A DNA stretch of 64,000 nucleotides from an uncultured Chlamydiae bacterium (lineage in GTDB: Bacteria; Chlamydiota; Chlamydiia; Chlamydiales; JAJFMB01). The stretch spans positions 928,001 through 992,000 of the forward strand of contig CAVOJR010000001.1 in the NCBI GenBank assembly GCA_963696295.1. The letters run 5' to 3'. The notes beneath the pieces are model-generated. The model ran no database searches. It worked only from the letters and a program-made list of their open reading frames with translations, and was not told where the DNA came from. Positions 19,320 to 57,104 of the stretch are shown one piece after another (positions within the stretch are counted from its first letter, which is position 1; each line of letters starts with the position of its first letter). The position numbers and the translations under genes are program-made.

Positions 19320-20054
19320 ATGGACCATGAAGACTACACCTTTACTTGCCAGCACAAACGCGATCGTTTCTCCCTCCAGGTCACACACAAGAGCGGGGAG
19401 TCGGTCGTGGTTATCAGCCCGCATGCCTGGAAAAGAAACTCCGTCTTTTTAGCAGGCAGCGCCGAGGTGGGCCTCGGCATTTATGCTTTGGCAGCGGCCA
19501 CGGTTACCCCTTTATTTCTGACCTGTGCCGGGGCTGGTATTTTGGCCTCCGGTATAGAAAGCCTCTATTACGCCATCAAGACACCCGAAGAAAGGGTCAA
19601 CCCAACCGATTTTATGAAGCGGTCGGTCATCAGCTTTATTGGAGGGGCTGTGAGCGGAGGCATGGGAAGGGCAGCCGCCCCTTTTACACCTCCTGCCGCC
19701 AACTTGGCGATTGCTGCTTTGTCGAATATGACGGGAAGTGTCGCAAGCGCTACAGCCGAAGCCGCCATCAAAAGGGATGTTAAAGTTCTGGAAAAATTAA
19801 CCCCTGCGCATATGGCAGAAACCATTTTTGTCGGTTTAGTCACCGGCGGATCCTCAAACTTAACGAAAGATGTTATCGAACAAGCCGAAAAAGGACTCCT
19901 GCAGCAAGTCAATGCGTGCCTTGCCGATATTTTTCTCAAATTGTCCCTGGAAAGTTCCGAGGAGGCTATGAGTCACGCCATTGTCAAAATCAAAGAAAAC
20001 AGCATCAAGATCCTGCATTATTTAAAATCCTACCAATCAAGGCCCTTTTCATAA
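19320..20054 (+). CDS. Hypothetical membrane/glycine-zipper protein, 3' end replaced by duplicated DNA
   Basis: Hydrophobic G/A-rich helices; the last codons come from the duplicated segment starting at 20018. Confidence 0.55.
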   Translation: MDHEDYTFTCQHKRDRFSLQVTHKSGESVVVISPHAWKRNSVFLAGSAEVGLGIYALAAATVTPLFLTCAGAGILASGIESLYYAIKTPEERVNPTDFMKRSVISFIGGAVSGGMGRAAAPFTPPAANLAIAALSNMTGSVASATAEAAIKRDVKVLEKLTPAHMAETIFVGLVTGGSSNLTKDVIEQAEKGLLQQVNACLADIFLKLSLESSEEAMSHAIVKIKENSIKILHYLKSYQSRPFS

Positions 20055-20215
20055 TTCAAATCGATTAAGGCCTGGCCATACTTCTTTTTGAAAAGCTCTT
20101 TGTGACGTTTTGTGAAATGCTTTTTATAACTTCCGATTTGCGCCTCTTTTTTCGAGATTTTGATGCCGAGGTGGGAAGCCAAATTTTTCACTGCCTGCAG
20201 TTGTAATTTGTCATC
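20018..20215 (-). pseudogene. Duplicated 3' fragment of the sulfotransferase gene
   Basis: Near-identical to 28941-29189 with one 51-bp internal deletion. Confidence 0.95.
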
Positions 20216-20477
20216 CCGGGAACTGCAGATGGATTCCCCGAAGAGGCCTTCTATTTTCTGGAAGAGCAAGGGCCGGACCCTCCCTTCTTAGAAATATACG
20301 ATCCTCCCAACTCTGAGGATAGCTAAACTTTAAGAGAAAATGACCACTGTCAGTGGAATAGAACTCTCTATTTCAAAAATAATTGCTTTTCAAAAAATAA
20401 CACCTCCAAACGGCTAATTTGCATCAAAAACGGTAGAGTTTTGGCGAATTTATAATGTATTTGTAAATAAGGGAGGA
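20216..20477 (+). mobile_element. IS91/ISCR-like remnant (3' region, hairpin missing)
   Basis: Near-identical to 52272-52565 and 27355-27580. Confidence 0.85.
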
Positions 20478-20496
20478 TCTCATACAAGGGAAAACT

Positions 20497-54723: not shown

Positions 54724-54741
54724 AGGGCGCTTTGCTTTTGA

Positions 54742-56463
54742 TTACGGAACTTTTTTAACCTTCTCTTTTTCTGCTATAAATGTTTCACAATATGATCTTG
54801 GAACATCCTTAAAATCATATGCAGCTCGAGCGGCCATCTCTTCGATGATTTTGTTATTGCTCTCCTGAGGCTCGTCCTTCTCCAAACGGATAGTTTTAAC
54901 AAAACTGGCTTTTTTTGCTTTCTTAAGCAAATCATCTAAAGAAAGGGAAGGATCATCGCACCGCTCCTTGAGCTTATTCAAATTGATTTTCTTGCCTATA
55001 GTACTCCAAATGGACCTCATGTCATTCTTCCCGATATTATTATGAGGTTTGTCTCCTGAGCCATGTTCAAGGGACTGGTAAACGACAACCGAGGCAAAGA
55101 TAAATTTGTAGTCGGGATTGAAAGCAATCACAAGATCTGCCGCTGTCTGGATCTTTCCCTCTAACAGCCCATTTTCCACCCTCTCGATCCTCTCCTGCAT
55201 AGCCTTCAATGAGGCGTCGACATCCAGCCAGTAGGGAGGAAGCTTTTTCACAATCTCTGTTATTTGCGGTGATTTTAAAAAACTCTGAACCTGATGCATT
55301 TTCTCTTTCACTGAGGCTACCTGGGATTTTAGTGCATCCAACTCAGCGGGAGATAATGATAGATGCGCATCTGGCAGATCGAGCAGCGCACAGCGGTAAG
55401 CGGGTATAATATGGTCAAAGGTATTGATGCAGCTGTTAGAGTTGGGCATACTGCGCGTGTTATCGAAATATTTGATTTTATTGTCCGGTGTGATGAAGAT
55501 ATTTCTATGATGTGCATCAAACATGCCAAAAATGATGCTGATCAAAATCGCCTTTGCTATTTCCTCTTTGGGTATATTGAGATCATCATCAGCATCTTCT
55601 AGAACTATTCCCTCTTGAACCGGCTGAATCCCGCCGAGCTGTTGCTTCAAGACCATTTTCCCAGTGGCCACAAACGACTCTTCTAAGCCCAAAATTACCG
55701 CGATATCCCAAATCAATTTTTCCATTCTGGCACCTGACGGCTCTCCTCCCAAACCTACTTTAAAATATGCGGCAACAATCTCAGGTTCCAAGCTTTTGAA
55801 GAGTTTATGCACTTGATTGAAGGAGCCAAACATTTCACTTTGAAGTTGGGGTTGCAGATTAGCCCATTTTTTTCCCTCTATCATGGCCTCAAACAAAGCA
55901 GCCTGATACTGCAGGGCTTTGGCCGTCACCGCCTGCCCTTTTCGTTCTAACTCCCTGAGGTCTCTCTTTGACTCTGTCTTTATTTTGTTCAGTTCTGCGC
56001 GCAAATCCTGCGGCATCGTCGTGAGTTGCATCAGAGCGGTCTCATCATCGCTATCCTGGATCGTATCCGCTATAAGATTTGATAATTTAACAAGATCTGG
56101 CAATGATTCTTTTGTGAGATTTTCTAATGCCGCTTGAATCAAAGGATATTGGCGCGCTTGCGCGCGGATTTGCTCTACTTTCTCTTGAGGCAGATTCATA
56201 ATGCCCGCGTCCTCAAACAAGGCGCAATAAGCGGCGATGCGCGTTTCATACTCTTTTTGCCAGGCGGTATCTTGCGTGATCGTCCGTTCTGCGAGATCCA
56301 AAAAAACGGTGTCATTTATTTTTGGATAGACAATATTTGATTTTGCCGCAATTTCTTTTCCGAGCTGCACTTTCACCATCCGCCTGCCAATGGCTAAATA
56401 CCCCTCTCCCTTATCCGGTCTGCCGGCTTCCCATATATTTGTGCTAATTGGTTCAATGTTCAT
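54742..56463 (-). CDS. PI3/PI4-kinase-like (atypical kinase) domain protein
   Basis: AYFK, GGIQP, FDAHHRNIFI, YFDNTRS. Confidence 0.6.
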   Translation of the reverse strand: MNIEPISTNIWEAGRPDKGEGYLAIGRRMVKVQLGKEIAAKSNIVYPKINDTVFLDLAERTITQDTAWQKEYETRIAAYCALFEDAGIMNLPQEKVEQIRAQARQYPLIQAALENLTKESLPDLVKLSNLIADTIQDSDDETALMQLTTMPQDLRAELNKIKTESKRDLRELERKGQAVTAKALQYQAALFEAMIEGKKWANLQPQLQSEMFGSFNQVHKLFKSLEPEIVAAYFKVGLGGEPSGARMEKLIWDIAVILGLEESFVATGKMVLKQQLGGIQPVQEGIVLEDADDDLNIPKEEIAKAILISIIFGMFDAHHRNIFITPDNKIKYFDNTRSMPNSNSCINTFDHIIPAYRCALLDLPDAHLSLSPAELDALKSQVASVKEKMHQVQSFLKSPQITEIVKKLPPYWLDVDASLKAMQERIERVENGLLEGKIQTAADLVIAFNPDYKFIFASVVVYQSLEHGSGDKPHNNIGKNDMRSIWSTIGKKINLNKLKERCDDPSLSLDDLLKKAKKASFVKTIRLEKDEPQESNNKIIEEMAARAAYDFKDVPRSYCETFIAEKEKVKKVP

Positions 56464-56559
56464 AATGCTAATTATAACAATTAAAATAATTAAATAATTA
56501 TAAATATTAAAAATTTTCTCAATAAATTGGAGGAGGGTTTGCCTTGGGCGCCAAAATAG

Positions 56560-57104
56560 ACTGGGCTTAAGAGATTTACACCCTCGTCCAAGACTGAGGA
56601 CGCTCTACTGGAAGCTTGCCCCGATGGAGTCCGGATGACATAGCAGATACTCAAGACGGCATACAGAAAGGAGTTCTTAAATATTTTGACAAGAGAAATA
56701 ACAAAGAAACGATTGAAAGGATGCTATCTAACGCCAATGTACGCATTCCATCATGGGATCTAGCGATTGTAAGATAATGTGCCAGGCGAAAATTTACGCT
56801 GGAATGGACCATGGATTAACTATCGTCTTCCCAAGCCGACTCGTGAGGGTAAAAGATTTATTCAGATTGAGCCTTTAAAACTCATCACACCCTATCCAAC
56901 CGACGACATTATCATGGCTCTCAACCCACCTCAGCATGTTCAAATCTGGATTGATTAAACTTTAAGAGAAAATGATCACTATGTGGAATAGAACTCTCTA
57001 TTTCAAAAATAATTGCCTTTCCAAAAATAACACCTCCAAACGGCTAAGAATCAAAAACGGTAGAGATTTGGCTCGCAGACCAGACCACTCTTGAATTTAT
57101 CCTT
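56560..57104 (+). mobile_element. Multiply deleted IS91/ISCR-like copy ending in ori
   Basis: Collinear mosaic of pieces matching 49858-50040 and 51931-52633. Confidence 0.85.

Follow-up and report, generated by a model that had tools for sequence, protein, structure and literature searches.

We analyzed a 64,000-nucleotide (nt) stretch of the chromosome of an uncultured Chlamydiae bacterium (G000:C1:928001-992000, hereafter the window, whose own positions are given where no contig is named), in which remnants of a mobile element of the IS91/ISCR superfamily lie in two array zones, a left zone at ~20-30 kb and a right zone at ~46-57 kb. The zones are arrays of dead ISCR elements that probably record past gene capture, and they hold no working cassette system. 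The ori end of the element, which bears its replication origin (oriIS), is joined precisely to the insides of several genes, the zones are lineage-specific expansions in a collinear core, and all copies are dead. We infer both that a transposase carried these gene pieces and from what kind of donor they came; adjacent DNA would have been mobilized from one end of the element. Our preferred account, which we hold to be slightly better than an even bet, is that serial one-ended transposition and stacking built oriented arrays of sister-species DNA, which then eroded. The genome comprises a 3.30-Mb chromosome (C1) and a 135-kb second contig (C2, a plasmid); the assembly is 97% complete and may lack an unassembled replicon.

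Identity and decay of the element

The translated pieces in the window are 55-64% identical in amino acids (aa) to P0001, an intact chlamydial transposase whose numbering is used here for the residues of the remnants. P0001 and a second intact relative, L020, match both Y2_Tnp and Zn_Tnp_IS91 above the Pfam cut-offs, and the HUH motif appears in the intact relatives as HPHFH or HPHLH. An alignment of 12 relatives showed the motif ERLIRYCARP with a single tyrosine and with arginine at the first position; judging from where it stands, this lone tyrosine is probably the catalytic residue. IS91 has two tyrosines, Y249 and Y253, four residues apart (PMC5714925), and ISCR elements form an IS91-related group with a single-tyrosine (Y1) transposase (PMC10288648; published systems are described here and below from excerpts of the cited papers). 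The ori end consists of a long hairpin followed by TTCCTATCCTT, 238 nt past the transposase stop in remnant 5, the longest copy (51929..52633, plus strand), which covers residues 359-511 with frameshifts, has its stop at 52395 and retains the full hairpin. In the relatives, a hairpin and TTCCTATnCyT are found ~210-280 nt past the stop. The ori hairpins here are very stable (-17 to -36 kcal/mol). The published counterparts are the end of ISCR1, TTCCTATACCC (PMC13023784), and the ori of ISCR27, 236 bp beyond the stop (PMC8894482).

The last four ori bases, CCTT, are the element's own and not a target, because an insertion into tRNA-Pro replaces the end of the acceptor stem. ARAGORN places the ori end of locus L030 inside tRNA-Pro; the one at L085 lies 5 nt beyond a tRNA 3′ end by our own reading, and the flank of L049 looks tRNA-like. 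Among 59 ori ends from relatives and metagenomes, we found no consensus target tetranucleotide; G is weakly disfavored at the first flanking base (1/58) and C at the second (2/57). IS91 uses CTTG or GTTC next to oriIS, and IS801 likewise has a tetranucleotide target (PMC13181058). By its sequence, the element belongs on the single-tyrosine side of the IS91/ISCR superfamily and is of ISCR type. It shares with IS91 proper the Y2_Tnp and Zn_Tnp_IS91 domains, an oriIS downstream of the gene and a subterminal palindrome, but two defining features of IS91, the paired tyrosines and the CTTG/GTTC tetranucleotide, do not hold here. An earlier note on this DNA had proposed an IS91/ISCR HUH transposase with an oriIS-like end; the match to P0001, the Pfam domains and the HUH motif bear out the former, and the motif and spacing of the ISCR1 and ISCR27 ori ends bear out the latter.

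Searches for a working copy returned fragments. PF04986 yielded two weak fragments in the genome and PF14319 no match, and a profile of the clade detected eight fragments, the longest covering 83 of 406 positions. By these three profiles and by tblastn with intact relatives, no intact transposase was found on the chromosome or the plasmid, so nothing there can act in trans today. On the ter side, where the relatives share just ~70 nt upstream of where the transposase begins, no convincing match to this sequence or to residues before 159 was found in the genome among the matches listed. The genome contains neither a complete copy nor an empty site, and the ori flanks are mutually unrelated. We also considered an outward promoter in the ori and rejected it, since promoter-like sites showed no excess over expectation (none in 52300-53400; 10 found over 5 kb versus 8.5 expected).

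The earlier note had envisaged a present-day non-autonomous rolling-circle system with the transposase supplied in trans, and had called for an intact Y2 transposase to be located and for circular junctions. No intact transposase or ter side was found, and no circle junction was seen in the short contigs of one soil run (share 0.05) over 13 of 30 bins, a thin cover; no RNA run was listed as containing the sequence. A live system with ori ends as boundaries at stop codons could draw on the five intact ori ends in the window, on the multiplication of the left copies after coding loss, and on the finding that IS91 mini-elements with 82 bp of the ori end move by transposase in trans (PMC13181058), but with neither a transposase nor a zinc domain found in a 97% complete assembly, we consider it very unlikely. 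On gene capture the note is probably right, when put in the past tense: the pieces are joined exactly at oriIS, and the left copies multiplied after coding capacity was gone.

Relatives of the element were detected in 20 of 400 genomes of the phylum, this one counted (one more genome beyond the 400 was left unscored), and 257 of 483 pattern matches in metagenomes encode a relative, 80 of which were kept. Exact ori patterns gave 0 matches in metagenome and genome contigs, and a single-protein scan of genome contigs returned no relative. We found no literature on IS91-type rolling-circle transposases in chlamydiae in a search that left subscription journals mostly outside; supplements to genome papers may list such elements.

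Gene pieces joined to the ori ends

In the right zone we identified pieces of tmRNA and of genes for a metN-like ABC ATPase, a carotenoid oxygenase, a sugar dehydratase, an outer-membrane-protein-like product and SIMPL; the intact homologues of these six genes are widely separated on C1. (The labels metN-like, outer-membrane-protein-like and, below, carA-like and IS3-like were given by reading the sequences alone and are presumptive.) A 79-nt double-ended ori palindrome (46238..46316) has 33-nt arms, a perfect ori end on both strands and a z of -11.5. It is preceded by a segment on the plus strand (46059..46237) that combines a minus-strand left-arm stub (46059-46081) with nt 1-92 of the metN-like gene, its 5′ start, where mismatches are distributed 5/4/17 over the codon positions, and it is followed by a 5′ piece of the carotenoid oxygenase gene (RPE65, by Pfam), cut at the ori (46317..46456, minus strand). 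The ori/metN-like junction is present a second time, inverted, in the left zone. There, remnant 2 (27355..27623, plus strand), which retains the transposase C terminus, a shortened hairpin and an intact ori end, is joined to the metN-like 5′ start, cut at the ori and again with a left-arm stub (27624..27802, minus strand); this segment is a 99% inverted copy of 46059-46237 and ends 3 nt from the stop at 27806. A contig of run X1, whose reads may also have gone into the assembly, spans the junction as well. We rejected an inversion of the 18-kb core block that the inverted repeats 27597-27802 and 46059-46264 enclose, the backbone being collinear.

Two further ori ends lead to genes. The 3′ half of a SIMPL (DUF541) gene runs from the ori of remnant 5 (52634..52960, plus strand), and remnant 3 (28756..28940, plus strand), with 3′ spacer, shortened hairpin and intact ori, lies 12 nt from the stop at 28953 of an intact sulfotransferase gene (28953..29735, minus strand), the right neighbor of the left array. 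Alignment begins right at base 1 past the ori for the metN-like, oxygenase and sulfotransferase flanks. For SIMPL it begins at base 5, with the register kept from base 1, and for a carA-like piece on the plasmid only at base 30. The other pieces of the right zone are a broken sugar-nucleotide dehydratase gene (50084..50727, minus strand; 75-78% nt identity to the resident gene at C1:1205989-1206984), an outer-membrane-protein-like 3′ piece (51257..51422, minus strand; 75-77% to the resident gene at C1:191511-192437) and a 99-nt copy of the tmRNA 3′ end (45962..46060, minus strand; 94% to the resident tmRNA at C1 c755918-756330). The tmRNA copy, followed by a terminator-like hairpin and 218 kb from the intact tmRNA, could be what is left of the attachment site of an old island, or else a piece that was captured.

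Compared with the resident genes, the protein-coding pieces show 66-79% nt identity, with an excess of mismatches at third codon positions (34/15/88 in the dehydratase piece and, as a second example, 10/14/49). Hence the pieces had been diverging as functional genes well before the element copies parted from one another. In the same range is an intact 573-aa gene of a lineage-expanded family (54742..56463, minus strand), which has 77% nt and 62% aa identity to the resident gene at C1:93956-95944 and is a candidate imported allele. Such distances would also be produced by old duplicates of the lineage's own genes, long functional and lately cut by the element, with no interspecies transfer. The resident paralogues are indeed the closest relatives found, and the third-position excess shows divergence under selection, not origin. 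We think this quite unlikely, as it needs long-kept copies of many unrelated single-copy genes and of tmRNA at a similar distance, and the SIMPL piece, which matches three metagenomic orthologues at 74-76% aa identity, shares 79% with the resident protein, a distance like that of metagenomic orthologues from the resident (70-84%).

We compared the positions of remnants and of paralogue pieces throughout the genome. With families of more than 3 loci left aside, there are 56 paralogue pieces, and for 11 of them the distance to a remnant is no greater than 1 kb, where the null mean was 0.94 and the maximum 6 in 5000; conversely, a paralogue piece is found within 300 nt of 10 of 22 remnants (null 1.6, maximum 7 in 1000). 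Outside the window, 5 of 12 loci have such a piece (null 0.78, p=0.0006). For eleven other repeat families, 3 of 99 copies stand beside paralogue pieces. A second concentration of paralogue pieces was noted at C1:2421000-2456000, near an ori remnant at 2426326.

These figures bear on the main alternative, that the zones are a graveyard only: foreign or duplicated DNA would have arrived otherwise (by plasmid, tmRNA-integrated island or recombination), the element would have hopped into it locally, and recombination between its copies would have caused deletions, tandem duplications and inversions that brought the pieces side by side. We hold this to be possible but less likely than not. The tmRNA 3′ copy at 45962-46060 would fit it, as would an open reading frame (ORF) at 46652 that is 84% identical to a plasmid gene and has an IS3-like start nearby (ORF 46652-47527 matches C2:69490-70221, and its end resembles the start of IS3 orfA), the many small deletions between near-identical copies, and the equivalence of ori-to-gene junctions to ordinary insertion scars. 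Against it, the other repeat families are rarely beside paralogue pieces and the link holds far from the window. Six unlinked genes would still have to be gathered, and a sulfotransferase copy at 20018, described below, starts 0-2 nt from an ori end, as in ori-to-ori excision.

The surrounding backbone, ntt-ntt-pgk...dnaQ-engB-tsaE-DUF2709...argS...radical-SAM gene, is collinear in the relatives G002 and G019 and, up to argS, in G018 (the two TLC nucleotide transporters and DUF2709 of the window were identified by Pfam and, in our reading, agree with a chlamydial origin, as the earlier note had it). The convergent interval from argS to the radical-SAM gene measures 0.94 kb in G019 and 15.3 kb here, and that from pdxH to dnaQ, 2.3-3.2 kb in G018 and G019 and 22 kb here. 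The protein-coding donor genes are not in this interval in the three relatives examined. No integron or resistance genes occur among the Pfam hits of the window, and Rfam and ARAGORN gave no match in it.

The left zone preserves a trace of how units may have been stacked. A copy of the sulfotransferase 3′ end (20018..20215, minus strand), 97-98% identical to 28941-29189 apart from one internal deletion, begins within 0-2 nt of the ori end at 28940. It supplies the last 12 codons of ORF 19320-20054, of which a 203-aa homologue ends before this point. Adjoining it is remnant 1 (20213..20477, plus strand), comprising the transposase C terminus and 3′ spacer; it is broken in the left hairpin arm, has no ori and lies 19 nt from the stop at 20497. 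This shape (20018-20477), a sulfotransferase 3′ end and then the element body, would be expected if replication had set out from the downstream ori and halted at the upstream one. Deletions are shared between pairs of the three left copies, which therefore had a non-coding ancestor and multiplied after coding capacity had been lost.

In our preferred account of serial one-ended transposition, an active transposase, in this lineage or in a sister species, would have replicated from oriIS past the element, carrying flanking DNA. Repeated one-ended rounds, together with circle or tandem integration through existing copies, would have stacked ori, foreign piece, element body and ori in one direction. 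Pieces of at least six unlinked genes, and probably whole accessory genes such as the 573-aa gene, would in this way have been gathered from a genome ~22-34% divergent. The arrays would have survived in promoter-free convergent spacers, from argS to the radical-SAM gene and from ORF 19320 to ORF 20497, and rapid small deletions would have removed the transposase, the ter side and any cargo not under selection, halting at the closest selected gene and so giving rise to stop adjacency.

Several observations weigh against this account. An ori-gene junction is the same as that of a plain insertion into a gene, and no left half or ter junction was found. IS801 fragments in Pseudomonas syringae were mostly put down to rearrangement and not to one-ended transposition in the excerpted report (PMC3189936), as a graveyard would have it. 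Like-for-like automated clustering reduced the association with paralogue pieces to 4/18 for the element family versus 3/99 (p=0.011), in part since pieces merge into repeat intervals. Three pieces near remnants are 98%, 96% and 91% identical in nt to resident genes and are recent copies, not foreign. For the dehydratase piece, nothing known is closer than the resident copy (82% versus 73% in 40 relatives), and the resident is also the closest relative found for the SIMPL piece and the 573-aa gene; a SIMPL tree does place the piece outside the pair of the resident and P0004, but its support of 94/91 falls short of the tool's threshold. We found no genome that could be the donor. Finally, two regions of the relative G389 compared with its own genome gave repeats and Rhs paralogues and no clear core-gene pieces among the candidates scored (40/97 and 40/132).

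Orientation, stop codons and probable erosion

The earlier note had described at least seven remnants of one element, all on the plus strand, with several ends 0-20 nt from the stops of minus-strand genes, and had likened them to cassette boundaries. All seven remnants were confirmed, the last of them starting at ~56628 in every alignment and not at 56560, and the distances to the named stops hold: 19 nt at 20497, 12 nt at 28953, 18 nt at 54742, an overlap of 1 nt at 57104, and, at 27806, 3 nt from the stub. Remnant 4 (49803..50044, plus strand) spans residues 233-312 and stops just before the tyrosine-bearing motif. Remnant 6 (54563..54723, plus strand) finishes 18 nt away from the stop at 54742; in it, a deletion has brought residues ~380-443 up against the final 8-9 nt of the ori. 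Remnant 7 (56628..57104, plus strand) extends from residues 248-363 onward with many deletions and a stop codon at the tyrosine position; it keeps the right hairpin arm and an ori with a 3-nt deletion, and overlaps by 1 nt the stop of a single-copy core gene present in 19 of 21 genomes (57104..58258, minus strand). An intact 450-aa ORF with no Pfam family or paralogue (52922..54274, minus strand) lies between remnants, and the genes at 20497, 27806 and 54742 are likewise without a Pfam family.

Other parts of that description did not survive. The palindrome at 46238-46316 has ori ends on both strands, and the stub at 46059-46081 is on the minus strand. As to boundaries, four of the seven window ori ends (27623, 46238, 46316 and 52633) lead into broken genes, and the ends at 20477 and 27802 are no ori ends, since the element is broken there within its left hairpin arm.

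Co-orientation is local only. A motif scan gave 21 matches, from which we set aside two left arms, two likely chance matches and two without a hairpin (C1:2331023 and C2:19036); chromosomal copies outside the window number 6 plus, 5 minus and 1 double-ended. Eight of 20 chromosomal remnant intervals fall in 37 kb. The window copies are mostly 96-99% alike, compared with 82-91% to body-bearing copies elsewhere, and they therefore represent one recent subfamily whose copies are not independent. Orientation set by the replication fork was rejected as well (7 lagging versus 4 leading independent loci, not significant).

The excess of stop adjacency in the window is likewise local, and it is real. 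A convergent stop lies within 20 nt of 3/7 window ori ends, of 0/9 elsewhere on the chromosome and of 4/39 scorable ends in relatives. We rejected a family-wide bias to face stop codons: the next gene in these 39 cases runs in the same direction in 20 and convergently in 16, the ori end is inside or cuts a convergent frame in 2, and there is none in 1; a further 20 flanks were too short. With simple ORF calls and a window picked after the fact, two nulls were applied, one length-weighted (5.3%) and one per gap (20.6%), for which the 3/7 has p=0.004 and p=0.16, respectively; genome-wide, 3/16 gives p=0.05 to 0.67, and counting the two non-ori ends, 5/9 gives p=0.00005 to 0.02. The earlier note had proposed a comparison of orientation and stop spacing with a random null, and both looked random genome-wide and in relatives, the outcome that the note had named as speaking against its model. 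The same counts (0/9 and 4/39) tell against a live cassette system, as do a neighbor that is a core gene and two of five boundaries that lack an ori. A better account of the stop-codon signal is that copies survived in convergent spacers free of promoters and that deletions halted at intact genes. At C1:629323, a transposase fragment without an ori abuts a convergent stop, as erosion predicts. In G389 (contig C3), four co-oriented remnants form a cluster, each facing a convergent gene (26-nt overlap, 45, 82 and 349 nt).

A selective reason for adjacency would be that the ori hairpins were retained as terminators or 3′ stabilizers of convergent genes, like REP palindromes. Their stability and the position of one hairpin 12 nt past the sulfotransferase stop are compatible with such a role, which we nevertheless judge exceedingly improbable, as the hairpin is deleted at four of the five stop-adjacent ends (20477, 27802, 54723 and 57104).

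Other features of the window are recorded for completeness. The left zone also has a split ankyrin-repeat gene (23757-24811) and a split DUF4143 ATPase gene (29810-30522), and 34171-34353 holds two 70-nt copies of another small repeat family with 7 copies in the genome. An intergenic 30-nt inverted match (29/30) links the zones, with 22458-22487 in one and 54346-54375 in the other. At 61784-63787 there is an Rhs repeat protein with a weak C-terminal match to Ntox24, followed by two small ORFs that may be immunity genes.

Relation to known systems and significance

The arrays most resemble ISCR1 and ISCR27 and the ISCR1 arrays of complex class 1 integrons, as these are described in the excerpts: a one-tyrosine HUH protein, TTCCTAT plus four bases 236-238 nt past the stop, loss of ter, and co-oriented repeats with foreign DNA to the right of each ori (PMC13023784, PMC8894482, PMC10288648). 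They differ from ISCR1 arrays in belonging to a chlamydial clade, in a cargo of core-gene pieces and unknown ORFs, in that the copies are dead, and in a hairpin that reaches into the ori motif, with double-ended palindromes. IS801 and its miniatures in P. syringae share ori-side fragments (229-679 nt), action in trans, carried gene fragments and an association with accessory genes (PMC3189936), but IS801 has a tetranucleotide target and intact copies, whereas here no tetranucleotide was found among the 59 ori ends, the copies have internal deletions and no intact one was found. Helitrons, in the partial accounts consulted, offer the same mosaic of gene pieces from unlinked loci beside a rolling-circle element; the present elements are prokaryotic, capture is deduced, and the two intact proteins scanned contain just the two IS91 domains and no helicase domain. 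IS91-linked cassettes, circles and tandem duplications are described in Sphingobium (PMC5737581), and ISCR1 has been linked to the capture of Kluyvera chromosomal genes (PMC3316993).

Double-ended palindromes like that at 46238-46316 also stand alone at C1:443885-443964, again with perfect ori ends, and at C1:2695214-2695288, where they are partial, with unrelated flanks. The natural left arm is imperfect, and two true ori ends therefore seem to have been joined. Double-ended palindromes of under 200 nt numbered 0 in the 181 loci fetched. A larger double-ended form is seen at G389:C4:1528654-1530016, where two element 3′ halves lie head to head with their ori sides outward. Among near-identical copies, the loop of the hairpin is found facing either way with respect to the ori end (52587-52600 versus 57072-57076; C1:414046 and C1:41). 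The assembly itself begins in the middle of an ori hairpin (G000:C1:1-45), which its other end does not continue.

The locus is dead and the class of mechanism is already known; the signal for interspecies capture is good but unproven. We consider it possible, though less likely than not, that the chlamydial ISCR clade acts as an interspecies gene scavenger that serially captures sister-species chromosomal DNA in co-infected protist hosts, both pieces of core genes and entire accessory alleles, stacks it in oriented arrays and delivers it, probably via the plasmid, feeding the expanded lineage-specific families of environmental chlamydiae; the double-ended palindromes and flipped loops would then reflect a hairpin-primed joining of ori ends that is not known to be described for ISCR. 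ISCR elements are, to our knowledge, familiar almost exclusively from proteobacteria, where they carry resistance genes. If the proposal is true, a clade found in 20 of 400 chlamydial genomes would provide obligate intracellular bacteria with a homology-independent route of interspecies gene import, and some of their duplicated accessory genes would have a testable origin.

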